From an uncultured Flavobacteriales bacterium (GTDB lineage: Bacteria; Bacteroidota; Bacteroidia; Flavobacteriales_D; Crocinitomicaceae): DNA of 64,000 nt. The stretch is from contig CAYMEW010000015.1 in NCBI GenBank assembly GCA_964389755.1, positions 2,002 through 66,001 on the forward strand, given 5' to 3'. Below, in pieces: positions 23,885 through 53,622 of this stretch (the first letter of the stretch is position 1; the number at the start of each line of letters is the position of its first letter). The notes beneath the pieces were generated by a model. That model was not told the DNA's origin, did not search any database, and saw only the letters and a program-made list of their open reading frames with translations. The position numbers and the translations under genes were made by a program.

Positions 23885-24640
23885 ATGCGCATTTCAGTAA
23901 TCACCTGCATCCTCGTGGCCGGAACGTTTATGGCCTGCACCGATCAAACGGATGAAAAACAAATGGAAGGAGGATCAGATGCAAACATATCCGACAGCCT
24001 TTCAATGAATGACAGTACGAATGTCGCAACGAATTCCGATACGCTGCACCTGGGCAGTTACGTCCTTGAATTGCATTCCGGGGGACCGGTAAAGATCTCG
24101 AAAACGTACGACGGTGAGTGGAGTGCCGATGAAAAATTGCCACATACACCGCGCATTCGCAGAACCGGTGACAGTCTTATTTTGACGCTTAATAATGGTA
24201 AGACCGTTTCTTTGGTCAATATTCCCTTTTGGGACGATGCGGAAGGCAATCACAACATGGATGAAACGGTTAATTACGCATACTTCAGGGATATCGGCAA
24301 CTACTGGGAAGTACAGGCATTCTGTTACGAATGCAATTACATGGTCTTTGTAAACAAGGAAACCGGGAAAACCTTCACAACGATCGGTCCCGGAGTGATC
24401 TCCCCCTCGGGGAACCTGTTGTTCTGCGCGAACATCGACCTGGAAGCCGGCTTTTCACTGAACGGTATCGAACTATACCGGAAAGAAAGTCAGGGCTACA
24501 GCCTCGTTGCTACCCGCGAACTACCCTGGAGCATCCACCAGTTGCGCTGGAAGAACGATTCCACCATCGCCGGCCAGCGCGTGGGTTTGACGGAAGACAT
24601 GGATTTCGAGCTGTTCGAAGTGGAATTGCGGGTTAGGTAA
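23885..24640 (+). CDS. Hypothetical lipoprotein
   Basis: Lipobox VAGTFMAC. No recognised domain. Confidence 0.55.
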   Translation: MRISVITCILVAGTFMACTDQTDEKQMEGGSDANISDSLSMNDSTNVATNSDTLHLGSYVLELHSGGPVKISKTYDGEWSADEKLPHTPRIRRTGDSLILTLNNGKTVSLVNIPFWDDAEGNHNMDETVNYAYFRDIGNYWEVQAFCYECNYMVFVNKETGKTFTTIGPGVISPSGNLLFCANIDLEAGFSLNGIELYRKESQGYSLVATRELPWSIHQLRWKNDSTIAGQRVGLTEDMDFELFEVELRVR

Positions 24641-24658
24641 AGGCTAAACAGACGAGAA

Positions 24659-25204
24659 ATGAGACAGGAAGCAGTGTTTGAAAGCAAAGCATTTTACCTT
24701 TGGGTCGTGGCAAGCGGGCTGGCCATTCTTTGTACGCCATTCATGGTAGGAGAAGTCGGGGAGGGATACTGGATAACTGCTCTTGTCATCTTCCTACTCA
24801 TCGCCGGCACGTCGGTCCGCAAGTTTACTTTTTATAATAATCGCATTGTTCGAACGGCTGTATTTCGTCCCTTTTTTCGGAAGAAGCAATACGCGTACGA
24901 CGAACTTTTATTTGTCGAGATCAGGAAAAGAAAAGAACCCTATCAGCGTCCATACATCAATCTGCATGTGAACCCGAAACGCATTTCAAGCATATTCTTT
25001 GCACACCGTGCGTTCATCTTTTCCGATTATAAAGAACTGAAGCCTTTAATTTTGCACCTGATCCGCAGGAACGTCGCCATACGACTCAACATGACAAAAG
25101 AATATCCTGATGAATTCACTTACTTGTCCGAACTTGTTTTAAAAAATAACGGCAAACTACTTTCGGCAAAAGATATGGGTGAATATCGAAAGCGAAACGT
25201 GTGA
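24659..25204 (+). CDS. Hypothetical membrane protein
   Basis: Two N-terminal TM helices. No recognised domain. Confidence 0.5.
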   Translation: MRQEAVFESKAFYLWVVASGLAILCTPFMVGEVGEGYWITALVIFLLIAGTSVRKFTFYNNRIVRTAVFRPFFRKKQYAYDELLFVEIRKRKEPYQRPYINLHVNPKRISSIFFAHRAFIFSDYKELKPLILHLIRRNVAIRLNMTKEYPDEFTYLSELVLKNNGKLLSAKDMGEYRKRNV

Positions 25205-25213
25205 GAACGTATA

Positions 25214-25932
25214 ATGACTAAACAAAAAAATACAATGGGAACCACTTATTTTGTAAGATGCACTTTCTACATCCTGCTCAGTATCGGATTCGTTTTGAAT
25301 TCCTGCGATGCTTCTCCGCCCAGAGTAAAACACGTTCCGATAAATTGCAATTCAAACATGTGTATCACACGAGAAATAATGGATGAAGGCGCATTTGGTA
25401 GTTCATTCACTAGCTATGCCATAAAGATAGGACGTCACATTCAAAAAATAAAAATTCAGCATTTTAAAATATTGGATAGCCTTTATGGGAAGATTCGAAT
25501 ACAGTCGTTGCCCTTTTTGACGACTTAAATAGGGATGAGTTTTTCTCGGATACCAGTTACGTCGTAACGGTTAGTGGACAGCGTATCGAGGTCTGTCAGC
25601 TTAATAAATTCAGGTATTTTACAAATATCCGGCTGATTGATTCAATTCCGTTTAACGCAGAAAGGACGGCATACAAATACAGTGTATCAGCTCCTGATTT
25701 TCCGGGTGAAAAGTACATTCAGTATTCTGTTTCGGGGTCGTCGAAGCAGCTTCCGGTCAGGGGCAACCTCATTTGGGCGAATCAATGGTTGTACACTGAT
25801 CCCATGTTGAGTCTTGAAGTTCGTGAACCTGGAAAACTAACTTTGACCTTTGATAAACAGTATGAAAATGCCATTTTGTTTGTCGACACCTCACTAATAG
25901 AAGTTCGGCCAGTTAATAGATGGGGTGGTTAA
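25214..25932 (+). pseudogene. Lipoprotein gene split by a frameshift at a T5 run
   Basis: ORF 25214-25528 has a lipobox (VLNSC). The -1 frame is open from 25480 to the TAA at 25930-25932 with no usable start codon. Adding one T to the run at 25514-25518 fuses the two into about 240 aa. Confidence 0.6.
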
Positions 25933-26057
25933 AATGGCTTTATATGCTGGCTGGACCGGTCCTGTTTTTAACTGTAATTACAGCAATTCGATCTTAGAAG
26001 AAATTAGATAATGGATTTAGTTATAATACACAAATATATCGCTAAAGTTATGGGCTT

Positions 26058-26113
26058 GTTCGTGTGAATTCCGTCCATTTTCTGTTAAAGGAATGAAAGG
26101 AATTCACATGAAC
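26058..26113. repeat. Imperfect 22-bp-arm inverted repeat (hairpin)
   Basis: gttcgtgtgaattccgtccatt / aatgaaaggaattcacatgaac around a 12-nt loop, with three mismatches. Lies in the spacer after the frameshifted gene. Confidence 0.7.
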
Positions 26114-26200
26114 GCGAACCGCAGAATCGTGCCGATAACCTTTCTTTGGTAATTACAAATGTTGTTGAGGAATCCAATTTGAACGATTTATATTCATAAT

Positions 26201-26452
26201 ATGAATGAAGAAGACTTTCTTAAGAAAAAAAACAACTTAATGGATCTGATTTCAAAAAGCATGTTGGAAACAGGCATTAGTATGCAGCAAAGAGCCTCGT
26301 TGGTTAAACTGTTAGAAATATTAAACCGATATTCATTTCAAAATAGAATAGACAGGAAAGGTTTACTCACGCACACAATTATCGATAGTTTGGAACTGGA
26401 CCATTCCGTAGGTGGAGAACTAATAAGGTTTGACAGCGAAATCCATCAATGA
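26201..26452 (+). CDS. Hypothetical small cytoplasmic protein (83 aa)
   Basis: ATG-initiated ORF in the AT-rich array. Helical and charged, no signal peptide. Confidence 0.5.
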   Translation: MNEEDFLKKKNNLMDLISKSMLETGISMQQRASLVKLLEILNRYSFQNRIDRKGLLTHTIIDSLELDHSVGGELIRFDSEIHQ

Positions 26453-26502
26453 TATATTAAGAGGAGCAACTCCTTACAAAAATATAAACATCATGCTTAA
26501 TC

Positions 26503-26522
26503 TGCACTCCTGGTTTATTTTC
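26503..26522 (+). repeat. Array intergenic repeat, short/degenerate copy D
   Basis: tgcactcctggtttattttc resembles copy E (tgcgcatttcaattcgatggtttatttttt) and the head of copies A and B. Confidence 0.4.
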
Positions 26523-26599
26523 TAAATTAGAAGATGTGAACGTCACTGGGTCATTTTTTTCTGCGATCGTCGTGACCTGCATTCAATATTACAATTTTA

Positions 26600-27004
26600 A
26601 TGAAAGCAACAAAACTGATTTTCTGCGTATTCCTCCTTACCTCATGTCTGTCCGATTACAAACTGGATACATTAAATAATGATTTTAAAATAGGGTACGT
26701 CGAATTATCCAGATACAGAAATATCTATTATCAAGATCAGGGATTATTTCACAGGAAATGTGTTTATTCGGTAATTGTAGATGACCAGTTCATTTACGTC
26801 AAAACCCACCCGTTTAATAAACAAAATACGCTTGTGAAAGATTCTAGTATGCTGTTTGTTATTGATCTGGAAAAATATAAGCTACAACCGGATCAGGAGA
26901 ATAGCCCGGGGATATTGGGTCCTTTTAAGGAAGAAGATTTCAAAAACAGCACATTAGGAAGAAGTATTAAAAATGAAGATTGGCTGGAATATCCGTTTGA
27001 GTAG
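26600..27004 (+). CDS. Hypothetical lipoprotein (134 aa)
   Basis: Lipobox FLLTSC. AT-rich array member. Confidence 0.55.
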   Translation: MKATKLIFCVFLLTSCLSDYKLDTLNNDFKIGYVELSRYRNIYYQDQGLFHRKCVYSVIVDDQFIYVKTHPFNKQNTLVKDSSMLFVIDLEKYKLQPDQENSPGILGPFKEEDFKNSTLGRSIKNEDWLEYPFE

Positions 27005-27135
27005 AAGAATTATTTTGATACAGGTCTGCTTAAAAGAGGTGGAGTGATCGAATAGATTCATTAAAGAAAAAGAAAAACATGCTGACCCTTTTAAAACAGA
27101 AAGCGGTAGATTCAAACACAGAAACAGAACGAGGA

Positions 27136-27633
27136 ATGAGTCACATGAAATTATTAAAACCGACTATTCAAATGCACACGTTATTCGTTAAATTTTTATT
27201 GGTATTTGGCTTGGCCTCATGCAGGACCGATAATGATCCAGGTATGGATAAAGTTCAAGTATTTAATGAGAATAATGTTGGTTTAAATATCGAAAGGGTG
27301 TTTAAGGACTCCGTTGGCTATACAATAATGGGTAATTTGGTTAATCAAGGATCTGATTCGATTGAGATATTGCCAAATGATCATAGTAGCTTTGTCTGTT
27401 ATTTTAAGATTGCTTTTTTTAAGGACAATGAATGGTCTGATTGGAAAGAATGTTTGCCTAAATATTATGTAGAATTTCCTGACCATATAGTTTTAGAACC
27501 AAATGCTAGCGTAAATTTTCGACTCAATTCGCGTATTGATTTTGGAGAATCAGATAATGCGTTTGAAGGATTAAAACTGAAGTTTAGTCGAATAGATGTT
27601 GATTCCGTGATTGTTGATTATTATTTGAATTAG
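27136..27633 (+). CDS. Hypothetical lipoprotein
   Basis: The ORF runs 27079-27633. The likely start is MSHMKLLKPT... with lipobox FGLASC. Confidence 0.55.
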   Translation: MSHMKLLKPTIQMHTLFVKFLLVFGLASCRTDNDPGMDKVQVFNENNVGLNIERVFKDSVGYTIMGNLVNQGSDSIEILPNDHSSFVCYFKIAFFKDNEWSDWKECLPKYYVEFPDHIVLEPNASVNFRLNSRIDFGESDNAFEGLKLKFSRIDVDSVIVDYYLN

Positions 27634-27657
27634 CACAAATGATTGTAATCAACTCAG

Positions 27658-27720
27658 TGCGCATTCACCACTCGAGTGGGCGTATTTTGCCCCGCACGAT
27701 TCAAACCATTCGGGCTTAAA
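27658..27720 (+). repeat. Array intergenic repeat, copy A
   Basis: tgcgcattcaccactcgagtgggcgtattttgccccgcacgattcaaaccattcgggcttaaa aligns along its length with copy B (29606-29680). Confidence 0.75.
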
Positions 27721-27806
27721 TCTAGATTTTAATAAAAGTGTATGTAATTTTACAATCCGAAAAATTGGGCAGCATTATCAAATTATCCATATTTACCATT
27801 TAGATA

Positions 27807-28232
27807 TTGAATTATATAGAAAACAAAAGCGAATATTATAATAGCGATTGGGATCGCATGTGGAAGGATATATTGAATTATGCAATGAATAATTCAGACT
27901 ACGTATCTTTTAATATTTTATTCGAAGATGAGCGATTAAAAAAAATGATAACAGATTTCAATGGTATTATTAAAACCGTGGATAAAGAGTACCAAAGTGG
28001 GAAATCGGTTTTTTTTCCAATATCTGAAAAAATATCGGCTTTTCTTATTAAGAAAGAATTTAATGATTGGATTAATTTTTGCGTTGAGGATCCATCATTT
28101 TGGAAAGATGATAGGGAGTTTGTAGCGACGATTTCGCATGAAGGATATATTATGTTTAATATTGAGGAGAAAGAAAAAAAATACTTCGCTGATATTGGAC
28201 TAATGACTTTTAAAGTTCGACAAAGGATTTAA
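27807..28232 (+). CDS. Hypothetical cytoplasmic protein (141 aa; TTG or internal ATG start)
   Basis: ORF in the AT-rich array. The first in-frame start is TTG; the first ATG is at 27858. No signal peptide. Confidence 0.5.
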   Translation: MNYIENKSEYYNSDWDRMWKDILNYAMNNSDYVSFNILFEDERLKKMITDFNGIIKTVDKEYQSGKSVFFPISEKISAFLIKKEFNDWINFCVEDPSFWKDDREFVATISHEGYIMFNIEEKEKKYFADIGLMTFKVRQRI

Positions 28233-28304
28233 AGAGAGTTTAAGATAGATTATATAATTAGTTAAATTGTCGCGAGGTGCTGCTCAGCAATATTATATTC
28301 GTCT

Positions 28305-28628
28305 ATGATTAGGAATAATATTAGTCAATTGGGTTATATACTAATTTTAATTTTTACAAGCCATTCTTGTACGGAAAAAGACCCGTTTTATTATGTAGAG
28401 TTTAAGGACCTGAAAATTTTGGAAGTAGGAAACCAAACTGGCACAAATATCTTTCTGGTACAAGAGAAAAGCGTACCTGAAATTACAGAGGGTTATTCAT
28501 TTGTTGAATACGACAAAAACAAATTAAGTAAGTTACATGTTGGAGACGTTTTAAGAAAGAGAAGAGGATCATACGATATCTATATCTATAGATCGGGTAA
28601 ATGTGTTCAGCGTTTAAGTAGAGATTGA
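28305..28628 (+). CDS. Hypothetical small lipoprotein-like protein (107 aa)
   Basis: N-terminal hydrophobic segment ending FTSHSC. Confidence 0.5.
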   Translation: MIRNNISQLGYILILIFTSHSCTEKDPFYYVEFKDLKILEVGNQTGTNIFLVQEKSVPEITEGYSFVEYDKNKLSKLHVGDVLRKRRGSYDIYIYRSGKCVQRLSRD

Positions 28629-28650
28629 TGAGTAGTTTGGAAGTAGGCGA

Positions 28651-28705
28651 AGTGGCGTTTTCTCTCTAAGTGTAAATGTTGCGCCATTTGCTTACTGCGT
28701 GTTAT
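28651..28705 (+). repeat. Array intergenic repeat, partial copy C
   Basis: agtggcgtttt...gcttactgcgtgttat matches the middle (agtggcgtatttt) and tail (gcttacttttgtgttat) of copy B. Confidence 0.5.
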
Positions 28706-28719
28706 GGGTATTTAATATT

Positions 28720-28750
28720 TGCGCATTTCAATTCGATGGTTTATTTTTTG
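28720..28750 (+). repeat. Array intergenic repeat, short copy E
   Basis: tgcgcatttcaattcgatggtttattttttg shares the TGCGCATT(T)CA head and the TGG..TATTTT core with copies A and B. Confidence 0.5.
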
Positions 28751-28845
28751 CTTCTTAAGAAATTTAATCAAGTCAAAGGCTTTTACGGGAAATGAAATTA
28801 ACGAAGCTGACTTCAAGTTATGCAGTTTTTCAAAAGCCAGTACTT

Positions 28846-29340
28846 ATGGATCTACAGACTAAAATATTACTTATTTTAAATTTATCAATTGTCATTGCAT
28901 GTAATGCCGATCATAAAACAAAATGGGAGGCTAAAAGAAAAGAAAACAAGCACCATACGTATGTTGCAAAAGATGATAGTATTGACGTACGCCTTAGTAA
29001 TATCTGTCTTGAACAATACAGACATATGTCGATTGTCGTATTATACCTGAGAGCTGCTCCACTTAATAACGAGATGGATAGTTTGCTTGAAAAAACAGAC
29101 ACAATTTTTTTAAGGCAGCACGGTAAAATTTATGAATGTTTGGTTTTTGATAAATGGGATAATTATCACAAAAAAATGGTTTTGCGTTACAGAACCGATA
29201 GATTAAGTGAAAAGGAGTATCGTGACTTTTTGAAAGAAGCGGATATAGATGTTCGATTTAATAATATTAATCAATGGTTCCGGTTGGATGAACGCAATTC
29301 CACCAAAGGCGTTGTACAAAATGATCTATATGAAGATTAG
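28846..29340 (+). CDS. Hypothetical lipoprotein
   Basis: The ORF runs 28792-29340. The likely start is MDLQTKILLILNLSIVIAC (lipobox). Confidence 0.55.
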   Translation: MDLQTKILLILNLSIVIACNADHKTKWEAKRKENKHHTYVAKDDSIDVRLSNICLEQYRHMSIVVLYLRAAPLNNEMDSLLEKTDTIFLRQHGKIYECLVFDKWDNYHKKMVLRYRTDRLSEKEYRDFLKEADIDVRFNNINQWFRLDERNSTKGVVQNDLYED

Positions 29341-29605
29341 ATAGGTAGTGTACCAGGGCAACCCCTAAGGAACTCTCAGAATAGACATTCGAATTCCGAA
29401 GGAAGCAAAGAAGTTATTTTCGAAATTCCGTAGTTTTGGTAGTGTCCCACACTATCACCTTTAAAATTTTAGCAATTAACTTTCTGACTTACAGTCTGTA
29501 TTCTGGCTTTTTACCTGTCAACGAGTGAAGGTAATCTTCTTTTGTTTTTGGTTTTTAGTTATTCCGAAACAAAAGTGATTGCCCTTTTACCCATTTTCAC
29601 CCACC

Positions 29606-29680
29606 TGCGCATTCACCCCCGCAAAGTGGCGTATTTTACCGCGCACCATCCAAACCCTTCGGCTTACTTTTGTGTTATAC
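29606..29680 (+). repeat. Array intergenic repeat, copy B
   Basis: tgcgcattcacccccgcaaagtggcgtattttaccgcgcaccatccaaacccttcggcttacttttgtgttatac. The conserved outer pairing TGCGC...GCGCA is also present in copy A (TGCG...CGCA). Confidence 0.75.
29665..29672 (+). promoter_or_regulatory. Bacteroidota -7 box (TACTTTTG) inside repeat copy B
   Basis: Matches TAnnTTTG. Lies 73 nt upstream of the DinB-like ATG. Confidence 0.4.
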
Positions 29681-30654: not shown

Positions 30655-31038
30655 ATGTTAAAGCAATCAAAAGCATTCAGCGGGTTTTCCGTGAACGACC
30701 TCGGGAAGGCCAGGCAGTTTTACGGTGAAACGCTCGGACTCGACGTCAAAGAAAGTGAAATGGGCATGCTCGAACTGCACACGCCAGGCAATAACGGGAT
30801 CATTGTCTATCCGAAGGAAAACCACGAAGCAGCAAGTTTTACCGTACTCAATTTCCCGGTAAGCGATATTGAGGCCGTGGTGGACGACCTGAGTGCGAAA
30901 GGCGTTGTTTTCGAACAGTACGGAGAACCGATAAAAACGGATAAGAAAGGCATTTGCCGCAACGAATACGGTCCGCTGATCGCCTGGTTCAAAGATCCTG
31001 CGGGAAATATTTTGTCGGTATTACAGGATCGAAAATAA
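30655..31038 (+). CDS. VOC (glyoxalase/bleomycin-resistance) family protein
   Basis: 127 aa. FYGETLGL ... [13 protein letters not shown], the typical VOC beta-alpha-beta-beta-beta ends. Confidence 0.75.
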
Positions 31039-31045
31039 ACGTTTC

Positions 31046-31065
31046 TAGCCGTTTCTTAACGGTTA
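31046..31065. repeat. 20-nt hairpin motif copy (TAGCCGTTTCTTAACGGTTA)
   Basis: Identical 20-mer at 62897-62916. Here it sits 8 nt after the VOC stop, at the junction with the HMG-CoA reductase fragment. Confidence 0.85.
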
Positions 31066-31074
31066 TCAGAAATA

Positions 31075-31336
31075 ACTCCAGGGTTCCGGCCACGCAATAA
31101 ACGGATTCAATAGTACCTTCTTTTTGCATGTAAAGCGGACCGACCAGTCCGAGCGGAATCTCAACCGAGCCCACAAAGGATTCGATGTTGTGTTGCAAAT
31201 CATAATGATTGAGGCCTGTTTTACGGATCTCACTGCAATTCAGGTCCAGTTTCGCAAGATGTTCGAGTCGCAGGTCAATTCCTTTTTGTGTAACCAGCCC
31301 GCGGCCCGGCACTGTACCGTATTTCTCCTGTTCCAT
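31075..31336 (-). pseudogene. 5' fragment of an HMG-CoA reductase-like gene
   Basis: MEQEKYGTVPGRGLVTQKGIDLRLEHL...NIESFVGSVEIPLGLVGPL resembles the N-terminal region of HMG-CoA reductases. Similarity is lost after about 88 codons and the frame runs into the VOC gene. Confidence 0.5.
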
Positions 31337-31537: not shown

Positions 31538-32572
31538 TTATTGCGCCACGCTCCAGTTCATTACAAAAATGCTGTCGTTGTTGTCCTGGTCGTCACCATT
31601 TTCGGTTTTGATTGTAACCGTAACATAAGGACCGTTCTGTGCAATTACCGGATCATTTACAGTGGGTTGCTTAAACGGACCGTCCGGGCCATCCGTGGAA
31701 TAGCGGAAAGTAAGAGACGCCGAAGCGGCCGTTTTGGAGTTTACCGTGACGAGCGATTGCCCGTTGCTTTTCAGAGAAACGTTTTCCCCGGTTCCGGAAA
31801 ACACGATCGGGTCGTATCCTTCAATGGCCACTGAAACGGTTTCATAGGCTTCCGAATAAGAGGTTCCTGAAAGTGAGATCATCGTATTTTGCGGGATTTC
31901 AATAACGGTAGCGTCATTGAATACACCGGGACTTATATAATTTACGCTGCCAACCGGTGATGCATTGTTCTTTACAGGAGAACTGTCGTTCCCGTTTTGG
32001 GCGTCAAAGGTGAAATACCCTACCAGTCCGGATTCATTTCCGCTTAATGGCTGGTTCATCGTCGACTGGATTTGTTCCTGCGAAAGCGCCTTGTTCCAGA
32101 TCCGTACTTCATCAAGCTGTCCGGAAAACTGGTTGAACTGCTCTTGTTGCTGTGCCACCGCACCGATGAAAAGAGCAATGGAATTGTTGACATCAATCGG
32201 AGGATTCATGTTGTTCCGAACACTGGACGGAACCGGGGCGCCATCCAGGTAGATCGTTAACTGGCTGGATTGTCTTACACCCGTCAGGAAATGCCAGTTT
32301 CCGTCCCGGATCGCAGTTGCCTGTGTATCGATTTCATAGAAACCGGATCCGTTGTCGGTAGCCAGTTTGATGCTTCCGTCCGATTTGATGACCAGCAGGA
32401 ATCCGCCCCAACCGCTTCCGCCCTGCGTGGATTTTCGGGAGATAACGGTGCCGGAAGCAGTGGTTTTTACCCAGCACTGAAGTGTAAAATCACCGGTACC
32501 GAAATTGTAGGCATTGTTAGACGGTGCCGAGAGGTAGGAAGGATTTCCTGAAAGATTTAATGCATAACTCAT
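31538..32572 (-). CDS. LamG (concanavalin-A-like) domain fused to a PA-IIL/LecB-like calcium-dependent fucose-lectin domain
   Basis: N-terminal half shows the Laminin_G_3 pattern (GDFTLQCWVK...LDEVRIWNKALSQEQI). The C-terminal ~115 aa align by eye with P. aeruginosa LecB (IPQNT.., FSGTGEN, TENGDDQDNNDSIFVMNW versus SEDGTDNDYNDAVVVINW). Confidence 0.65.
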   Translation of the reverse strand: MSYALNLSGNPSYLSAPSNNAYNFGTGDFTLQCWVKTTASGTVISRKSTQGGSGWGGFLLVIKSDGSIKLATDNGSGFYEIDTQATAIRDGNWHFLTGVRQSSQLTIYLDGAPVPSSVRNNMNPPIDVNNSIALFIGAVAQQQEQFNQFSGQLDEVRIWNKALSQEQIQSTMNQPLSGNESGLVGYFTFDAQNGNDSSPVKNNASPVGSVNYISPGVFNDATVIEIPQNTMISLSGTSYSEAYETVSVAIEGYDPIVFSGTGENVSLKSNGQSLVTVNSKTAASASLTFRYSTDGPDGPFKQPTVNDPVIAQNGPYVTVTIKTENGDDQDNNDSIFVMNWSVAQ

Positions 32573-32616
32573 ACATCTTGTTTTTTGAAGTGAATATTAA
32601 GGGTTAACTGTTTGTG

Positions 32617-33624
32617 TTATTGTCCGCAGGATTTTGCAGGAGCCTGGAGTACGGTTTCAAAACGCACTCCTTCCGAGGCCTTGAAGCCCGGGTTTAACGT
32701 GATCTTGTCGGCACATTGAAATAGTACGTTTGCCGAATCCGTGATGACATACGTGTTGCCCGTACTTAGCGTCTTTTCGGCTGTTGCCAGGGCGATATTA
32801 CTCCGGTCTACCGTATCGCGTAGCTGAAACTGATTTTCGGGCACACTTTGAAACGAACCGATCAGTGCTGCATTTTGATTAAGTACACGCACGTTGTCGT
32901 TGACGCCGGGTAAGCCAAGTGCCACGCCGTAATATGTAAGGTCGGGACTGGAAAAATAAGGAATGATATTACACGGGTCGGGAAGGCTGTCTTCCGGGCC
33001 GTCCGTATCTCCACGACAAAAATCATCGTCGTCTACCCCGAGTATCGTGCTGAAAAAAGCACACTCGTTAAATACCCAGTCGAAACCATGGCCGTAGGAG
33101 TAAACGGATCCGGAGTTTCCCGCTCTTGAATTATAGGCATGTGCGCATCCATACAGGTGGGCAACCTGGTGGCTGAAGGCAAAATTATTCAGCATGCAGT
33201 AAAAGTTAACCGCGCAATAAGCCGTTTCGGATGTCGCCAGTGTATTATCCAGGTAAGGCAAACCGCAGAATTCGTCGTTCGCGAGAACAATAACAGCAAC
33301 GTCCGCGTGATACCGCTCCCGCAAACTGTCAATGTAGCTACTGGATTGAAACGCATTCAGGTCGTTCGCAAAACAATATGTTTCGTCTTCCGGTAGCAGT
33401 ACCGTTCGCACCAGGACGGATTGCTGTTGGACATTGCTGTACACGTAGATCGTATTCATACTGTTGACAGCATCAACGATCGCGCCGGTTATTTTGCTGT
33501 CACTTCCGAGACTGTCGGCAGCGTCCTGTGAGTAGGCGACCAGGATATTTACATGACAATCCTGGGCGCTGGCCTGGCAAACTGCGATGATGCAAGGTAT
33601 AATCAACTGGAATAGTTTTTTCAT
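32617..33624 (-). CDS. Secreted reprolysin-like (M12B-type) metalloprotease homolog with an HQxxH motif and a C-terminal 3-coathanger-like domain
   Basis: Signal peptide. SHQVAHLYGCAH occupies the HExxHxxGxxH position with Gln for the catalytic Glu. C-terminus ITLNPGFKASEGVRFE. Confidence 0.6.
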   Translation of the reverse strand: MKKLFQLIIPCIIAVCQASAQDCHVNILVAYSQDAADSLGSDSKITGAIVDAVNSMNTIYVYSNVQQQSVLVRTVLLPEDETYCFANDLNAFQSSSYIDSLRERYHADVAVIVLANDEFCGLPYLDNTLATSETAYCAVNFYCMLNNFAFSHQVAHLYGCAHAYNSRAGNSGSVYSYGHGFDWVFNECAFFSTILGVDDDDFCRGDTDGPEDSLPDPCNIIPYFSSPDLTYYGVALGLPGVNDNVRVLNQNAALIGSFQSVPENQFQLRDTVDRSNIALATAEKTLSTGNTYVITDSANVLFQCADKITLNPGFKASEGVRFETVLQAPAKSCGQ

Positions 33625-33637
33625 AATTCCGATTTAT

Positions 33638-35098
33638 TTATTCTCCGTGGCAAAAAATGGATTTAGTGAGGGTAGTCCCTTCGTACCATTCGTATTGTAG
33701 CGTATAATAGCTGCGTTGTGCAATTGGGAAACCATTGTTAACAGGTGCGACTTTCAGGACGATATCCCCCAGTTGAATAGGAACGGCGGCTGCATCAAAT
33801 AAAAACAGAGAGTCGCCGTTGGCCATTACATGCGTTTCCAGTGTGTCGGCGAGGTTCACGGGGCGGTCGGTAGCGACCCAGCTTACACTTCCGGAGGTAT
33901 TTCCCTGCCGGGTATTGATATTCCGATACTGGAAATGGAGTTCAGTCATCAGAAACAAGATCGTACTGTCGTGGTTGAGGGAATCCAAATTCCAGTTCGT
34001 ACCCTGTATCCGGTCAATGATTTCCTGGGTCGGATGTCCGAATGTAGCCTGGCTTCCTGCGGAAATAGCGATAAATGAACTACGCAGGGTATCTAGAAAA
34101 GACTGGTTGGTACTGCAACAACTTCCGTGGTGACTGATTTTCTGAGTACAGACATGGCCGTGTGCGGAAACAGGCTGTTGGTAGATGATGGAAAAAGCCT
34201 CGCTGATCGGTGTTTCGATGTCAAAATAATTGGAAGAACAGCTTGTGCATGTTCCGTAAGAACCATTATATCCGCCCACATCTCCAGCCGTGTACCAGCG
34301 AAATGCGCCGTACTCGAGCACCCATCCGATCCCCCAGTTGTTCGGGTTTTTACGGCGTGTACGTAAATTAATTTTCCAAAGATCTTTCAACGTGTCAGCT
34401 ACATTATAAGTATTGTCCGGTGCTCCCGGATAATAGACTTTCGAGTCTGCAAGTATCAATCGGAGTCGCACGGGAGTTCCGTTGGCGTCGGCGCCAAGAT
34501 CTACGTAGCCGCCGAGAGACAGGTTTTGGGTCACCGGCAGGGGAGGAGGATATACGCCCGAAGGTGAAATGGTATTGACGGCAAACGGGTTTCCGGCAGT
34601 TGTCGTTCCAACGGCGATACGCCTGTTCCCTGCCAGCGATTTGTAATGATCGTATAAATCCGTCCCGGAAGTCGGTAGGTTATTTCCTTTATCGAGCACT
34701 GTATAAAAACTGACGTGTGCTGTGTCTCCCAAAACACCGGTATAAACCTCTCCGCATTTTCTTTTTTTATTACCGATTTTCGTGTAAAGCGATTCTTTTT
34801 GTCCGACAAGCCCGCCAATGTGATCACTGTGGTAGTGTGAGGCAATCACATAATCGAGGTAAATCTTCCCACCCGCATGTTTGGCGTGTGTGTCGAGGTA
34901 TTCGATGACATTTTTATTTTGGTTGGTTTCACCGGCATCGAGCAGGATCGAATACTGGATTCCTCCCGTATTATTCATAATATTAATAAGTGCGGCATCT
35001 CCCGTTCCGACGTCGATCTGGTGGATCTCAATTTTCGATTGAGCGGAGACGGTTTGAACGAGCGCAAAGCATACTAGTGCGCGGATGTATCTTTTCAT
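33638..35098 (-). CDS. Secreted MBL-fold (ComEC/Rec2-type beta-lactamase-like) protein
   Basis: Signal peptide. IDVGTGDAALI, ASHYHSDHIGGL (HxHxDH). Confidence 0.7.
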   Translation of the reverse strand: MKRYIRALVCFALVQTVSAQSKIEIHQIDVGTGDAALINIMNNTGGIQYSILLDAGETNQNKNVIEYLDTHAKHAGGKIYLDYVIASHYHSDHIGGLVGQKESLYTKIGNKKRKCGEVYTGVLGDTAHVSFYTVLDKGNNLPTSGTDLYDHYKSLAGNRRIAVGTTTAGNPFAVNTISPSGVYPPPLPVTQNLSLGGYVDLGADANGTPVRLRLILADSKVYYPGAPDNTYNVADTLKDLWKINLRTRRKNPNNWGIGWVLEYGAFRWYTAGDVGGYNGSYGTCTSCSSNYFDIETPISEAFSIIYQQPVSAHGHVCTQKISHHGSCCSTNQSFLDTLRSSFIAISAGSQATFGHPTQEIIDRIQGTNWNLDSLNHDSTILFLMTELHFQYRNINTRQGNTSGSVSWVATDRPVNLADTLETHVMANGDSLFLFDAAAVPIQLGDIVLKVAPVNNGFPIAQRSYYTLQYEWYEGTTLTKSIFCHGE

Positions 35099-37455
35099 TT
35101 TTGCGAGTTTGAATTGTTTTCGAGTTCCGAAAGGCGTTGACGCAATGCTTCGTTCTCTTTTGAAAGCCTGATCATATACAACGTCAGTTCCTCGATTTTT
35201 TCCATCATTTTGACTTCCATTTCCGCTACGTCAAGTCCGGAATTTTCTACTTCCGAGGCGGCAGGAATGTTTGGAAGGTGCCCGTTTTGCTGAATGAACT
35301 GTTCGACTTCCGAAAGGGGTACGAGAACATAATTTTCAGAGAAAACATAGTCTGCCCAACCCGATTCCACGATGATCTTTTTGGCGCGGATCCCTCCGTT
35401 CACGAGCAGGCGGTAGGTCGTATCAAAACTTTTTGTTCCGATTCCGACACTGCCGTTGTTACTGATGAAAAAGGCGCTGTCTGCCGAATTCGTGCTTCCG
35501 TTTTGAACCTGGAATCGCGCGGACGGATTTGCCGTACCCACACCGATATTTCCGGGTACGAGGGTGTACATGATACTATCACCGTTTAAAGTGTCCAGTA
35601 TCCAGGTTTCGGACGGTACTTTAAAAGTGGCAGGTGTCCATTGATCCCCGATCCACTGTAATACCTGTCCTTCTCCTGGCACCGAGTCGGCGATGGCTTT
35701 TCCGTTGAGTTTGTTTGCGTTCCAGATTGCGGAGTCGCTTTGTGCACTAAAGAGCGAATCACCTGTCAGCAGGAGTCCGTTACCGGCTGCATATTTCAGA
35801 GGTGTTTGTGCTTTCCATTGTGAGCCGTCCCATTGTAACACCTGTCCGGAAACCGGTGCCCCGGAAGATACCGGAGATCCCTGTATTTTGCTGACGGTAG
35901 GATTCGGATATTTTCCGCTGAGATCGCCACCAGCACTTCCGTTTGCGGCATCTACTGCACGTTGGGCTGCGGCTACGGCGGTATCCTTTGCAACCTCGGC
36001 CTGTGTTGCGTAGTTTTCGGCTTCCGTAACGGATTCTGCTGCTTCGGTAGCGGATTCGGTTGCTTCTGTAGCCGCTTCCGTGGCTTCTGTTGCAGATGCC
36101 GAGGCTTCCGTTGCTGCTCCCGTCGCTTCTGCGGCAGCCCCGGTCGCTTCTGCTGCAGCGCCTGTTGCTTCCACTGCGGCGGCTGTTGCCTCTGCGGCGG
36201 CACCGGTTGCCTCGGCTGCCGCTCCTGTCGCTTCCGCAGCTGCTGCTGTCGCTTCTGCCGCCGAAGCAAGTGCCGCAGCTGCTGAGGCCGCCGCGGCTAC
36301 TGAGCATTCGCATTCTCCTTCCGGACCTTCCGGACCTTGTGGCCCTTGTGGTCCCTGAGGACCTTCGGGACCCTGTGCACCCTGCGGGCCACGTATATTT
36401 TCTGTGAGTGTCCAGCTATTGTTTGTTTTCTGGTAAACATTGGCAGAAAGCGTGTCGAGAAAAAGATCATTGTCAGAACCGAGTGAGGTAGCCGGGGTGC
36501 CGCTTCCGGTATACCATACGGATCCGTTTGCCCCGGCCGGTCCCTGCGGGCCTTCAGGTCCTTGCGGTCCCGCATCCCCCTGCAGTCCGCGAATATTTTC
36601 AGTAAGTGCCCATATATTGTTGTTTTTCTGATAGACATTTGCAGAAAGTGTATCGAGGAAGAGATCACTGTTAACGCCCAGCGCCGCATCCGGGGAGCCG
36701 CTTCCGGTATACCAAACGGATCCGTTCCTTCCCGCCGGCCCCTGTGGTCCTGCTTCGCCTTGCTGGCCTGCTGGTCCTTGCGGCCCGGGAGGTCCGACGA
36801 GTCCGCTTGTATCCCCGACCCACTGGCCGGAGGCCGAAATTACGGACGAACCGTTTATCGCGATGTTGCCGTTTACATCCAGTTTTGAATTCGGAGTGGC
36901 TGTTCCGATTCCTACATTTCCACCATTATAGTAGAGGTTCGTACCGTTTAGCGTCCAGTATTGCTCCGTTCCGCCCACCACAACCACGGCAATCGCGCCG
37001 TCATACTGATTGTTGAAAGGCGGTTTGTAACCTTCCGTGATGTAATAAATACCTTCCGTTGCCGGTACCGAAAAACCGGTTTGAAATGTTCCGTTTGCCG
37101 GGATGGAACTTCCTGAAAAAAACGACTTGATCTGTTGGCCGCCGAATGAAACAGACCAGGTTGTATATCCAATCGTGCAGGGCTGATTATTCGTTGCGCT
37201 GATCGCATAATCAAAGGAGATACTTATCGAATCTCCCGGCTGAGCGCCAAACCAGGAATTTCCGCCTCCGTTGACGCGAACGTTCGTAAAGGTCACGTTG
37301 TAATCACAGGCCTGGTACACGCTTACGGTTTCGGAAGTTACCGTGGTCGGAGGAATCAGTGTTTGCGCTTCGAGGAAAGCCGGGAAAAAAAGTAGTCCGT
37401 AGCAGCATGCCAAACACGAAACGAATCTTTTTGGAATCGGGTTAATCTTTTTCAT
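35095..37455 (-). CDS. Collagen-like repeat / tail-fiber-domain protein
   Basis: 786 aa. Signal peptide, three G-X-Y blocks (GPPGPQGPAGQQGEAGPQGPAG...), an Ala/Glu/Thr heptad array, and a C-terminal WADYVF...HLPNIPAASEV...KIEELTLYMI module typical of tail-fiber/endosialidase-chaperone-like domains. Confidence 0.8.
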   Translation of the reverse strand: MKKINPIPKRFVSCLACCYGLLFFPAFLEAQTLIPPTTVTSETVSVYQACDYNVTFTNVRVNGGGNSWFGAQPGDSISISFDYAISATNNQPCTIGYTTWSVSFGGQQIKSFFSGSSIPANGTFQTGFSVPATEGIYYITEGYKPPFNNQYDGAIAVVVVGGTEQYWTLNGTNLYYNGGNVGIGTATPNSKLDVNGNIAINGSSVISASGQWVGDTSGLVGPPGPQGPAGQQGEAGPQGPAGRNGSVWYTGSGSPDAALGVNSDLFLDTLSANVYQKNNNIWALTENIRGLQGDAGPQGPEGPQGPAGANGSVWYTGSGTPATSLGSDNDLFLDTLSANVYQKTNNSWTLTENIRGPQGAQGPEGPQGPQGPQGPEGPEGECECSVAAAASAAAALASAAEATAAAAEATGAAAEATGAAAEATAAAVEATGAAAEATGAAAEATGAATEASASATEATEAATEATESATEAAESVTEAENYATQAEVAKDTAVAAAQRAVDAANGSAGGDLSGKYPNPTVSKIQGSPVSSGAPVSGQVLQWDGSQWKAQTPLKYAAGNGLLLTGDSLFSAQSDSAIWNANKLNGKAIADSVPGEGQVLQWIGDQWTPATFKVPSETWILDTLNGDSIMYTLVPGNIGVGTANPSARFQVQNGSTNSADSAFFISNNGSVGIGTKSFDTTYRLLVNGGIRAKKIIVESGWADYVFSENYVLVPLSEVEQFIQQNGHLPNIPAASEVENSGLDVAEMEVKMMEKIEELTLYMIRLSKENEALRQRLSELENNSNSQK
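36020..36300. repeat. Tandem 21-nt (7-aa EATGAAA-type) coding repeat inside the collagen-like gene
   Basis: Translated minus strand: AAEATAAAAEATGAAAEATGAAAEATAAAVEATGAAAEATGAAAEATGAATEASASATEATEAATEATESATEAAES. Confidence 0.85.
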
Positions 37456-37603: not shown

Positions 37604-37606
37604 TTG

Positions 37607-37679
37607 TCGGGATGACTGGACTCGAACCAGCGACCCCCACGTCCCGAACGTGGTACGCTACCAACTGCGCTACATCCCG
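37607..37679 (-). tRNA. tRNA-Pro (anticodon CGG)
   Basis: Reverse complement CGGGATGTAGCGCAGTTGGTAGCGTACCACGTTCGGGACGTGGGGGTCGCTGGTTCGAGTCCAGTCATCCCGA folds as a cloverleaf. Anticodon loop TTCGGGA. Confidence 0.9.
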
Positions 37680-37685
37680 TTTTTG

Positions 37686-37758
37686 TCGGGGTGACTGGAT
37701 TCGAACCAGCGACCCCTAGCACCCCATGCTAGTACGCTACCAACTGCGCCACACCCCG
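37686..37758 (-). tRNA. tRNA-Pro (anticodon GGG)
   Basis: Reverse complement CGGGGTGTGGCGCAGTTGGTAGCGTACTAGCATGGGGTGCTAGGGGTCGCTGGTTCGAATCCAGTCACCCCGA. Anticodon loop ATGGGGT. Confidence 0.9.
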
Positions 37759-46417: not shown

Positions 46418-47035
46418 ATGTCACGCGCACTTAAAAAACTCGACGAACGCCTCGAAGGCACGCTATCTGAACTGCAACTGGCTCCGCTCCGGGAAGAAGA
46501 AACGGTGTTGCTATCCAAAAGCAAACAGGGCGGCGATCTCTTGCTGTGCTCACGCGAAAACCTGCTAAATGGCATCGTACTGACTGCTATCCAGAAAGTA
46601 CCTGAGTCGCTCGAAGGTTCACCACGTGTACTCGTCGTTACGGCCAGGCCGGAAAAAGCGTTTGAAATGTATAAACTGGCGCTCGACTTGCTCAAACGCA
46701 CGGAAGTGGATCCGGAACACGCGCACGACACGGGCAACCAGATCGAGCAGCGCAACGACATTTTCGAAGGTGCGGAAATGATCTTCGGAAACCTGCGCCG
46801 CGTCTACGACCTCTACATCCAGAACGGCATCAACATGAACCTCTTGCAACTCGTAATCCTAGACGACCTCGACGAAATGCTTCGCCATGGAAACGCCGGA
46901 CAGCTCAATCGCCTGCTCGAAAGTTTCCCCAAATGCCAGCGCATGGCCATCACCACACAACTTACTCCTAAAGTAGAAAGCATTTTACCCGATTTTCTGG
47001 TGAACCCGGAGGAAAGGGATTTTTTAAATCGTTAA
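46418..47035 (+). CDS. Degenerate DEAD-box helicase domain-1-only protein
   Basis: 205 aa. Shows RVLVVTARPEKA, a LVILDDLDEML (DEAD-like) block and MAITTQLTP (SAT-like), but no intact Walker A GKT. Confidence 0.5.
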   Translation: MSRALKKLDERLEGTLSELQLAPLREEETVLLSKSKQGGDLLLCSRENLLNGIVLTAIQKVPESLEGSPRVLVVTARPEKAFEMYKLALDLLKRTEVDPEHAHDTGNQIEQRNDIFEGAEMIFGNLRRVYDLYIQNGINMNLLQLVILDDLDEMLRHGNAGQLNRLLESFPKCQRMAITTQLTPKVESILPDFLVNPEERDFLNR

Positions 47036-47373
47036 GCTAGCGTCAAACAAGCAGGTTTTTCTGGCAATGACTCTTCAATGAAATCACGTATAAGTTCGAA
47101 TCGCTTGATGAATAGCTGCGCAATTTCGTCTGTCCGTAAATTTCCGGTGCGTAACCAAATGATTTTAGGAGGGTGGCCGTTTAATTGGATGAGGTCATAA
47201 AAATCGGTATCAAAACTAACAATGGTATAGTGATGATCTCTGGCAAACCTCCATATTTCAATGTCAGTTGCATCTTCAAGTCCTACTTCCCGGACCTGCT
47301 TCGCATCCGGAAAAACCGTTCTGATTTTGTGTATCACATGAAATGAAATATTTTGATCGAAAAGTAACGTCAT
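47032..47373 (-). CDS. DUF5615 PIN-like (Mut7-C-type) putative toxin
   Basis: LLFDQNISFHV...TIVSFDTDFYDL pattern. Start overlaps the stop of the DUF433 gene by 1 nt. Confidence 0.75.
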   Translation of the reverse strand: MTLLFDQNISFHVIHKIRTVFPDAKQVREVGLEDATDIEIWRFARDHHYTIVSFDTDFYDLIQLNGHPPKIIWLRTGNLRTDEIAQLFIKRFELIRDFIEESLPEKPACLTLA

Positions 47374-47594
47374 TAGGCAACCCTAAATCGTTGTTCACGA
47401 TCCGCTGCATAAGCCAAACAGGCACGTATTTGATCCTCTGTTAATTCCGGGAAATCGGAAATAATTTCCTGAACGGACATACCGGATGCGAGCCAGTTTA
47501 AAACATCAAATACCGTTATGCGGGTACCGTTGATACACGGTTTCCCAAAACGAATTTCCGCATGGATGGAAATGTATTTTTTATAATCGATCAT
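47373..47594 (-). CDS. DUF433 putative antitoxin
   Basis: RFGKPCINGTRITVFDVLNWLASGMSVQEIISDFPELTEDQIRACLAY, a textbook DUF433 pattern. Confidence 0.8.
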   Translation of the reverse strand: MIDYKKYISIHAEIRFGKPCINGTRITVFDVLNWLASGMSVQEIISDFPELTEDQIRACLAYAADREQRFRVA

Positions 47595-47927
47595 GATTCG
47601 TTCTTATTAGCTAATTTACGAATTCTATTTCGAAAAGTATGCATGAGTGGCATAAAATGCTGAGAATAAAGGAGGGGAGATTTCTCGCACCTAAATCGAA
47701 TTCTGCCAGTCACAACGCTATCGTTCACGCAACAATTTATCGGCTCTTGTGCTAATTTCGAACAGCTTCAAAAAGTGCCGAGCCGTTTCAAATGAAATAC
47801 AACGCTGGAGTAAGTGAAATAGTATTTCCGAAGAAATAGGTAGTGTAACCTTCGCCATGCGAATCCTGATAATCGTATTCAAGGCCGGACTTCAGTAACA
47901 GTTGGATCAGGCATTGTTGGTAAACTT

Positions 47928-51864: not shown

Positions 51865-53622
51865 TTATCCTTTTGGGTCGATTAGGGCAGCAAAATTTGT
51901 AAATGGATTATTTGTGTCAGTCATTTTACCGATCTCGATAGTACTCCTTACTGTAGAAACTATCTGACGATAACTTTCCTTATCATTTATAATTTGAGCA
52001 AATTCGCTATCTATAACTCGCGCAACAATTGAAAGTGTAATGACTATTAATGGTTTACATCTATCAATTAATTCCTGAATACTATTGCTACTTGCTGATG
52101 CAATACCATTTGCGAACGCGACATTATGTTTGTCAACACTTTCACCAATAATGCTTTCAAGACTGTCTCCAATTATAGATAAGAGAAAATATTTAAATCT
52201 CAAATGTCTAAGTAATGACAATTGTTTAATTTCATCAGTAGTGCATCTTGTATCGTTGTTTTTGACTTTTAATTCATAACACCTTGCATCAATAGCTTTA
52301 ACAAAGCAATATGCCAATAATAAATGCTTAGATTTCGTATTATGAAAAGCATCGTTGTAGAGACTAGTACTTTCAAAAATATTGTTTTTCCCACTTCCTG
52401 CTTCGACGTAATTGCCGTGCAAAGCAGACGTTGGCTGTGCAACTAGTTCAATACTTAATTCGGAGTGGTTTTCAAATCCTCTTTTGAAGGAATAAGTGTA
52501 ACCTAATTTATCAAATTCGGTAGCAATTCTAACCTGCTCGGGGTTTCCACTATATTTATCCCATGTCGTGATTTCATTCTGAGTATTATTATATTTTACT
52601 ATAGAATTTATCGTATTTTCATCGGTGGATTCAATGATTCGACATAAAACTTTAACAGCTTCTAAGTTTTCAGGATTTGAATGCGAAATGGAACCTGTTG
52701 TTTGTGCACCGTTTATAATTGAAATCCCCTCCAGCAAAGTTTCATTATTATTGCCTGGATTTGCATAGAATTTAGTGGTTAAGATCGTTATTCCATTGTT
52801 AAAAGCCCAAAAATTTTCTGCCTCATTTTCGACTGTAGTTTTAATACCATTGTTAATTTTTTTTCGTCCTCGTCGACTGATACCTAAGAAATTTCTGTAA
52901 TTAGCTGAAAATAGGTTATCACCATATTCAGTATAAAGAGTTTTCAGCCATTGACCATTCACAGTAAATATTGAAGCCTTCCATTTTTCGTTCGATTCTT
53001 CAAATTTTATTTTTTCTGGTAACTTTATTGTATCTTTTACAGCTATTGCGGTTTCTCTTAGCCTATAGATTCGCTCGGTATATTGTAGACCTACCTCCTC
53101 TGCGTTTATAATTATATCGGAATCATTTATTAACTTGATTAAGTTAGCTTTAACAGTGTCAAGTTCGTCACGAACATTTTTTGATTCGGCTAAATTATGC
53201 ACGTAGAGTATCTCAATATCCTCAATTTCCTTATTTCCCAGAGCTTCTCTAATATCTTGTGCTATTTCTCTAAGAGAATTTTTAAATTTTCCATTTTCAT
53301 CAGTTCTGAGGTCATCTAAATTACCAGATAAAATCCAAGCAAACGCAGTATTTAAATCTGATGCCTTGTTTGACTTTGCTTTATAAACTGCACCATTCGA
53401 AGAATAAGTACCTTGAGCCACAATTAATCTTTTACTATCTAAATCAAGCCTAACAAAGTCTATTTTCTTATCACCATGACCGTCGGTTAAGCTTTCAGAA
53501 GCTAACTGATCTATATCTGGAAAGTCAAGATACATTCCCATGACCCATAATAAATAAGCCTTTTCTTCACCATATTTTTCAATTAGTAAAGTTTGATCCT
53601 TAAAATTTTTCAAATAGTCCAT
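51865..53622 (-). CDS. AIPR-family abortive-infection phage-resistance protein
   Basis: 585 aa. N-terminus ESLTDGHGDKKIDFVRLD...IVAQGTY, central FWAFNNGITILT...INGAQTTGSI, the typical AIPR pattern. Strongly AT-rich. Confidence 0.75.
   Translation of the reverse strand: MDYLKNFKDQTLLIEKYGEEKAYLLWVMGMYLDFPDIDQLASESLTDGHGDKKIDFVRLDLDSKRLIVAQGTYSSNGAVYKAKSNKASDLNTAFAWILSGNLDDLRTDENGKFKNSLREIAQDIREALGNKEIEDIEILYVHNLAESKNVRDELDTVKANLIKLINDSDIIINAEEVGLQYTERIYRLRETAIAVKDTIKLPEKIKFEESNEKWKASIFTVNGQWLKTLYTEYGDNLFSANYRNFLGISRRGRKKINNGIKTTVENEAENFWAFNNGITILTTKFYANPGNNNETLLEGISIINGAQTTGSISHSNPENLEAVKVLCRIIESTDENTINSIVKYNNTQNEITTWDKYSGNPEQVRIATEFDKLGYTYSFKRGFENHSELSIELVAQPTSALHGNYVEAGSGKNNIFESTSLYNDAFHNTKSKHLLLAYCFVKAIDARCYELKVKNNDTRCTTDEIKQLSLLRHLRFKYFLLSIIGDSLESIIGESVDKHNVAFANGIASASSNSIQELIDRCKPLIVITLSIVARVIDSEFAQIINDKESYRQIVSTVRSTIEIGKMTDTNNPFTNFAALIDPKG

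Follow-up and report, generated by a model that had tools for sequence, protein, structure and literature searches.

A probable orphan-immunity island of small genes in an uncultured, probably Bacteroidota chromosome

We analysed a 64,000-nucleotide (nt) stretch of contig CAYMEW010000015.1 (assembly GCA_964389755.1, positions 2,002-66,001), referred to here as the window, within which all coordinates are counted. It contains an AT-rich island (25214-29340) of seven small genes, P1 to P7, which is probably a horizontally acquired heterogeneous polyimmunity (orphan immunity) island in the chromosome of a probable member of the Bacteroidota. The P2, P3 and P5 families have members in the cognate-immunity position in other genomes, 2-20 nt downstream of Rhs-type toxin genes or their orphan tips, and in the window a toxin-gene relic directly abuts P5. 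A preliminary description of this DNA had suggested a reservoir of immunity-type genes; with three of the seven families found in this position and the relic next to P5, that suggestion is now supported.

The island stands out first by its base composition. GC content falls from ~0.50 to 0.29-0.42 over ~24.9-29.45 kb, and is 0.343 within the island compared with 0.475 in the window, in agreement with the drop described earlier for ~25.2-29.4 kb. At third codon positions the GC content of the island genes is 0.28-0.43, as against 0.56-0.64 in the flanking MFS, DinB_2, SnoaL_2 and glyoxalase genes. Overall gene GC lies between 0.29 and 0.42, exceeds 0.41 only in the 3′ part of P1 (P1b, 0.42), and decreases stepwise along the island from 0.40 in P1 through 0.35 in P2 and P3 to 0.29-0.33 in P4-P7. 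All seven open reading frames (ORFs) lie on the plus strand and span 83-235 codons. Read directly from the translations, five of the products carry a lipobox behind a hydrophobic stretch (LNSC, LTSC, LASC, SHSC and VIAC); this signal is absent from the other two, P2 (26201-26452) and P5 (27807-28232). The count of five lipoproteins and two cytoplasmic proteins encoded on one strand therefore stands as first described, except that the first ORF is the 5′ part of a frameshifted gene extending to 25932. The absence of recognisable domains was also confirmed, as none of the seven proteins reached the curated thresholds of Pfam, NCBIfam, PADLOC or PHROGs. No mutual similarity was detected among them, either in a direct-repeat scan or in the HMMER search described below, where their match sets were separate. 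At the level of DNA, plasmids gave no match to the island by distant blastn, nor to P3 or P5 by tblastn.

Homologues were collected in an exhaustive HMMER search with the concatenated island proteins against 1.84 billion representatives. P2, a cytoplasmic protein of 83 amino acids (aa), belongs to an 82-aa family with 59 representatives in this search and 74 clusters in a further one; these show identities of up to 60% and occur in Chitinophaga, Sphingobacterium and Chryseobacterium. In Chitinophaga sp. XS-30 (CP043006.1, locus L121) the P2 homologue starts 2 nt past the gene for a 1519-aa DUF6443 Rhs-type toxin. At a second locus (L117), in another genome, the homologue likewise starts 2 nt past a 163-aa orphan ORF, which is 85% identical to the last 129 aa of the XS-30 toxin and sits downstream of an Ntox10/Imm27 pair. 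In Sphingobacterium thalpophilum the homologue is the last gene of a same-strand array of small genes behind a Tox-REase-7 gene. The P2-family genes have a GC content of 0.25-0.28 in hosts of GC 0.39-0.47.

The ~129-aa C-terminal domain and the 82-aa protein make up a conserved candidate toxin-immunity pair that lies outside Pfam. It was seen in L121 (3440-8249) as part of a full-length Rhs-like protein and in L117 (7508-8249) in the form of an orphan module. The toxin domain follows the pattern ...RFYG...GRYLFPTFTNYTNR...GGSYQ.YINNLNNLIK.

P3 (26600-27004, plus strand) encodes a 134-aa lipoprotein of a ~130-aa lipoprotein family with 25 representatives. Its closest homologue, P0011, starts 20 nt past an ORF that consists of an Rhs core end (HDPRIGRFFAVDPL...) followed by a C-terminal domain of ~290 aa. 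P5 encodes a 141-aa protein with a TTG start and belongs to a ~145-aa family, again with 59 representatives. One P5 homologue (P0144, locus L103) starts 13 nt past a 376-aa orphan Rhs C-terminal ORF, residues 2-142 of which share 67% identity with the core end of the 1727-aa DUF6443/Peptidase_M91 toxin encoded next to it. Another P5 homologue lies within an Rhs-NlpC/P60 toxin locus. Pfam holds no family for members of the P2, P3 and P5 families. Near the homologues of P2, P3 and P5 no co-occurrence of other island families was seen, and no viral relatives were found for the subset of the P5 family. AlphaFold2 models of P3 and P5 were confident, with predicted local distance difference test (pLDDT) values of 91.9 and 93.2. 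Foldseek comparison of the P3 and P5 models with the PDB returned nothing below an E value of 0.1, and a sequence-profile search of the PDB with P5 gave no match.

Directly in front of P5 lies a relic of a toxin gene, comprising its last 20 codons and stop (27748-27810, plus strand), which aligns with the end of the orphan Rhs C-terminal ORF in L103. Positions 27748-27807 translate to FYNPKNWAALSNYPYLPFRY followed by the stop, and the last 20 residues of the L103 orphan toxin, also followed by a stop, are IFNPTKWDALSTWKYTPFRF. The ungapped BLOSUM62 score of this alignment is 64, and the runner-up among the 127,882 20-residue segments in the six-frame translation of the window scores 26. The relic stop overlaps the TTG start of P5 (TTGA), and a TAA at 27745-27747 closes the relic frame upstream. 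Because the relic tail abuts P5, this gene appears to derive from a toxin-immunity module in which all of the toxin gene except its tail has been lost, and because the relic corresponds to the tail of the L103 toxin, the same toxin-immunity pairing is present in two unrelated genomes. The relic beside P5 would thereby illustrate clearly how a toxin-immunity module gives rise to an orphan immunity gene.

The remainder of the window contained no intact toxin gene. No toxin relics were found upstream of P2 or P3, and the six genes other than P5 are not preceded by toxin fragments. When the toxin C-terminal domains of the homologous loci were compared with the window by tblastn, the relic was the only significant match; leftover matches at ~50.1-50.4 kb were marginal (E 0.04-0.06). 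The earlier statement that no effector gene is present thus agrees with our result, a toxin reduced to a 20-codon relic being all that was detected.

We considered whether the stretch might instead be an ordinary accessory island specific to its lineage, encoding small envelope lipoproteins and cytoplasmic proteins that have nothing to do with toxin immunity. Adjacency to toxins would then reflect only how mobile small AT-rich genes are in general. Of the seven genes, four lack an immunity-type context, no described Imm family or structure was matched, no toxin system is visible in the window, and a solitary P5 homologue among housekeeping genes would suit this explanation. It accounts poorly, however, for three unrelated families from one 2-kb stretch each recurring 2-20 nt behind Rhs-type toxin C-termini, for the same toxin domain (85% identity) preceding P2 homologues in two genomes, and for the same toxin tail preceding a P5-family gene both in L103 and in the window. 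We regard an ordinary accessory island as rather unlikely.

Several points also weigh against the orphan-immunity interpretation. Toxin-context evidence is confined to three genes out of seven; for P6 a single weak homologue was found, and for P7 no homologue at all. The single homologue of P4, P0018, is the first gene of a three-gene array of small genes with no toxin adjoining, and the P5 homologue among housekeeping genes stands alone there. The assignment to immunity, as a prediction from gene position, draws for each family on between one and three independent loci. Pfam searches linked none of the seven proteins to a described Imm family, and the P3 and P5 models match no solved structure. 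The organism is represented by one sample, the island and flank proteins forming singleton clusters at 90% identity that all derive from SAMN20336532, whereas strain variability is a hallmark of such loci. Finally, the role proposed below for a repeat at the island draws on just two copies.

These two copies are 62 nt long and lie on the plus strand at 27658-27719 (copy A, GC 0.53, inside AT-rich DNA; nhmmer E 1.1e-18) and at 29606-29667 (copy B, GC 0.56, where the island ends on the right, 78 nt upstream of DinB_2; nhmmer E 2.3e-17). Their GC content is host-like. They share 52 identical positions over ~62 nt, including an ungapped 35-nt core of 86% identity, and their local alignment score of 62, compared with a mean of 18 for shuffled sequences (z ~20), shows that the similarity first noticed between the two long copies is real. 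As direct repeats they bracket the toxin relic and P5-P6-P7 (27720-29605), and the end of copy A is 28 nt from the truncated toxin tail.

The proposal that these copies belong to a repeat family occupying the spacers was not confirmed. A two-copy profile (nhmmer) found only A and B in the 64 kb, the next match, elsewhere, having an E value of 1.5. Among the spacers no pair besides A and B exceeded z = 3, and 12-mers recurred no more than in shuffled spacers. The partial and short copies that had been listed at 28651-28705, 28720-28750 and 26503-26522 have only 8-9-mers in common with the repeat, as do dozens of sites in the window, which is the level of chance. Copy A does contain the palindrome CCACTCGAGTGG as described, but this is absent from copy B, and a conserved structured repeat was not confirmed: the predicted folds differ between the copies, and fold z-scores for A and B were not significant (-1.8 and +0.2 on the plus strand, -2.5 and -0.3 on the minus strand). 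Rfam searches, run with gathering thresholds over the entire window and with E <= 1 for 27.5-29.9 kb, returned only two tRNA-Pro genes.

Beyond the window, a 19-mer from the repeat core gave 96 single matches in unrelated taxa among 185,579 species genomes (596 Gb), a collection in which the species of the window is either lacking or masked and where by our own estimate ~70 chance matches are expected for 17 specified bases. None of these matches extends past the core, and they reach at most 18 bits, compared with 58-63 bits for the true copies. Viral contigs contained no match to the 19-mer. Two other origins of the repeat were considered and rejected. A tRNA fragment is not indicated, as ARAGORN found no tRNA at this position and no stem matches the T-loop-like GGTTTGAATC of the minus strand; for a coding origin, inspection by eye revealed indels that shift the frame between the copies and no conserved frame.

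The resemblance to integron attC arrays and to the recombinase-associated arrays of gut Bacteroidales, raised in the preliminary description, amounts to the explanation that site-specific recombination maintains a cassette array and that the recombinase is encoded outside the window. In such a layout each multi-gene cassette would end, on its 3′ side, in the 62-nt repeat as its recombination site; the first cassette would comprise P1-P4 and copy A, the second the relic, P5-P7 and copy B. The host-like GC of the direct repeats that bracket a discrete AT-rich block, and the truncation of the toxin 28 nt from copy A, speak for this arrangement. In addition, several P5 homologues are true cassettes, residing in integron-like metagenome arrays with structured 250-nt repeats and a tyrosine recombinase, and rAID-1 (recombinase-associated acquired interbacterial defence) as well as some polyimmunity loci are associated with XerC/D-type recombinases. 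Against this stands the repeat itself, which is present in two copies rather than one per spacer, leaves six other spacers without a copy, and lacks inverted-repeat ends, R''/R' cores and a significant or common fold. Integron R''...R' core pairs were missing from all seven spacers. The repeat is not similar to the attC-like repeats of the metagenomic arrays, and its 19-mer core occurs at chance level in the species genomes, shows no extended homology and is absent from viral contigs. Precomputed Pfam assignments for the called genes of ~1-51 kb and an hmmscan of ten large ORFs (nine of them in 51-64 kb) revealed no recombinase, either in the 25 kb to the left or in the 34 kb to the right of the island; on this point the preliminary description had been correct. 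A recombination-maintained cassette array, whether integron- or rAID-like, is consequently very unlikely.

The metagenome arrays that harbour P5 homologues (L115:1-6378, L111:1-4164, L110 and L109:9900-13190) were found on contigs Ga0209575_10002679, Ga0209099_1017663, Ga0123335_1062352 and ERZ1026792 NODE-1507. They consist of small genes on the same strand, including a 153-aa P5 homologue, with a GC-rich repeat of ~250 nt behind each. The ends of this element, CCTAACAGGTCGGTATATG ... CATATACCGCCGAACGTTAGG, are able to pair, and compensatory changes are seen in an inner stem. In L115 the gene for a 279-aa recombinase of the Phage_integrase family (1829-2668) lies between two repeats in the same orientation, with cassettes on both sides. 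At ~250 nt the array element is far longer than classical attC sites.

The island was also compared feature by feature with integrons and rAID-1, and fits neither. Like integron arrays (IntI and attC), the island has small, promoterless-looking genes on one strand, and P5 homologues occur as attC-like cassettes in metagenomes. In contrast to integrons, the window is devoid of an integrase, of imperfect palindromes of the attC type and of GTTRRRY/RYYYAAC cores, and the 62-nt repeat is missing from most of the island spacers. The rAID-1 system was described from gut Bacteroidales (Ross et al. 2019, bioRxiv 10.1101/471110; PMC12247911). In common with it, the island has at least two small genes (~100-300 codons) in the same orientation, of GC <41% in a genome of higher GC, and its predicted orphan immunity genes are diverged from cognate ones (25-60% identity to their homologues). 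Unlike rAID-1, no gene for a XerD-family tyrosine recombinase is located upstream of the island or in the window, no intergenic motif is common to the island spacers, of which only two share sequence, and the host is not established as a member of the Bacteroidales, the closest homologues being those of Chitinophaga, Sphingobacterium and Chryseobacterium.

The location of the copies would also permit a reading in which the 62-nt repeat is not a recombination scar but a duplicated cis-regulatory or promoter-proximal element, serving the DinB_2-SnoaL_2-glyoxalase genes and P5-P7. Both copies are upstream of the start of a same-strand gene, A 87 nt before P5 and B 78 nt before DinB. Copy B runs at its 3′ end into a Bacteroidetes-type -7 motif (TAnnTTTG, TACTTTTG), 80 nt before the DinB start, while copy A is followed by TAGATTTT, and neither copy is matched by an RNA family. 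The exact -7 motif is missing from copy A, however, and no TTTG -33 element is found at the expected distance. Furthermore, the relic between copy A and P5 means that the promoter would have sat inside the former toxin gene, and the element is absent from the other island genes. We regard such a regulatory element as unlikely; the repeat may also belong to a dispersed family.

Among described systems the island most resembles heterogeneous polyimmunity loci, which are tandem, co-directional, unrelated immunity genes without toxins and are known from Bacteroidetes among others (Zhang, de Souza, Anantharaman, Iyer & Aravind 2012, Biol Direct 7:18; PMC3482391). It shares with them tandem co-directional small genes that have no detected mutual similarity, at least three of which are from toxin-adjacent families, and it contains no active toxin gene, only the 20-codon relic. 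Polyimmunity loci adjoin a XerC/D recombinase only 'in several cases' (PMC3482391), and the absence of a recombinase from the window is therefore compatible with this assignment. It differs from them in that none of its seven proteins falls into the catalogued Imm or SUKH/SuFu families (Pfam negative) and in that immunity-type evidence extends to only three of the seven genes. We assign the island to the polyimmunity loci with moderate confidence. A further likeness is to the orphan toxin-immunity modules that lie behind Rhs genes. In front of P5 lies what is left of its toxin gene, the 3′ end, and homologues in L103, L117 and L116 sit in such modules. Unlike these modules, the window has no full-length Rhs/YD-repeat or DUF6443 gene, and the relic in the island represents the extreme C-terminus (20 codons), with no homology to the Rhs core.

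From the positions of the homologues we infer that each of the small proteins would bind and neutralise one C-terminal domain of the Rhs-type polymorphic toxins of other bacteria, and so protect the cell. The cytoplasmic P2 and P5 would counter toxins active in the cytoplasm, and the lipoproteins P1, P3, P4, P6 and P7 those active in the envelope. The island was probably built in several acquisitions, because GC content differs by segment, one gene is decayed by a frameshift and one toxin is truncated; the P5-P6-P7 block would then be the last acquired. In this scheme P5 would have arrived as part of a toxin-immunity module, the toxin gene of which was cut to its last 20 codons. The relic and the P5-P7 block may have entered through a single crossover (Campbell-type insertion) with a sequence that the DinB gene already had upstream of it, an event that would fit the data because the repeats bracket this segment and copy A ends 28 nt before the truncated toxin. 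It is conceivable, though highly improbable, that the repeats are the recognition sites of an undescribed, trans-acting cassette-capture system of environmental Bacteroidota, which inserts multi-gene immunity blocks upstream of a fixed chromosomal site and is unrelated to attC or rAID motifs.

If the orphan-immunity interpretation is correct, the island extends a phenomenon studied mainly in gut Bacteroidales to an uncultured, non-gut, probable member of the Bacteroidota. It would also supply three candidate immunity families that have not been catalogued, and for each of them a candidate partner toxin domain without a Pfam match. The 82-aa family would pair with the last 129 residues of the Rhs-like protein of Chitinophaga XS-30, the 130-aa lipoprotein family with the C-terminal domain in L123, and the 145-aa family with that of the L103 orphan; all three candidate pairs are directly testable by co-expression. 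The current picture of interbacterial defence would be unchanged, and the attractive integron-like mechanism is not present.

The remaining genes of the island have few or no homologues. P1 (25214-25932, plus strand) is a frameshifted lipoprotein gene of ~235 codons, which is read in frame 1 to ~25480 and then in frame 3 to a stop at 25932. Three-frame translation showed a 104-aa ORF (25214-25528) and, after it, a frame that stays free of stops for 150 codons but has no start codon. The merged P1 translation matches its one homologue, the 227-aa lipoprotein P0010, with an E value of 6e-24 over query residues 51-234, a match that spans the frame junction; by tblastn, residues 84-225 of P0010 map to 25483-25917. 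P1 is probably a pseudogene or the product of a homopolymer assembly error. The frameshift is located in a stretch rich in A/T homopolymers (25443-25490), and the available assemblies all come from one sample.

Downstream of P1 lies an inverted repeat (26058-26113) with 22-nt arms of 86% complementarity and a 12-nt loop. It is the sole local inverted repeat in the island and may be a terminator without a T-run.

P4 (27145-27633, plus strand; open from 27079) encodes a lipoprotein of ~162 aa with the lipobox LASC, and its match to P0018 has an E value of 5e-15. P6 (28305-28628, plus strand) encodes a 107-aa lipoprotein with the lipobox SHSC, for which the one weak homologue is the 106-aa lipoprotein P0151 (E 2e-4). 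P7 (28792-29340, plus strand) encodes a lipoprotein with the lipobox VIAC and the likely start ATG 28846, and matched only itself among the 1.84 billion representatives. P4 (27463-27498) and P6 (28389-28424) have in common a short motif, YYVEF.D..(I/V)LE, encoded by 36 nt of 75% identity, which may be due to chance or be a trace of distant relatedness between the two lipoproteins.

The rest of the window is ordinary chromosome, including Suf and fatty-acid genes, UvrA, capsule export, RibD, two tRNA-Pro genes, RsgA, aromatic amino-acid synthesis, a two-component system, an AIPR gene and proteins with type IX secretion C-terminal sorting domains, the last of which point to the Bacteroidota. Neither a recombinase nor an Rhs/DUF6443 or type VI secretion gene was found in it. 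The genes directly upstream of the island encode an MFS transporter, a 251-aa lipoprotein and a 181-aa membrane protein. The last two (23885-25204, plus strand) are singletons. The 181-aa protein has two transmembrane segments, and its gene, which is intermediate in GC content (0.43) and ends 9 nt ahead of P1, may belong to the island.

On the other side, just to the right of the DinB_2, SnoaL_2 and glyoxalase genes, a 115-aa ORF on the minus strand (30989-31336) gave only a weak match to HMG-CoA reductase. It looks like a gene fragment and suggests a past rearrangement at the right flank of the island. Further along, directly downstream of the tandem tRNA-Pro genes (CGG, GGG), lies a block of four minus-strand genes (31538-37455 and 37606-37758), which encode a 786-aa collagen-repeat protein, two unknown proteins of 486 and 335 aa, and a 344-aa Laminin_G_3/PA-IIL lectin-like protein. 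The abortive-infection-type AIPR gene (51865-53622, minus strand) and a toxin-antitoxin-like DUF5615/DUF433 pair (~47032-47600, minus strand) indicate a second accessory or defence patch ~20 kb to the right of the island.

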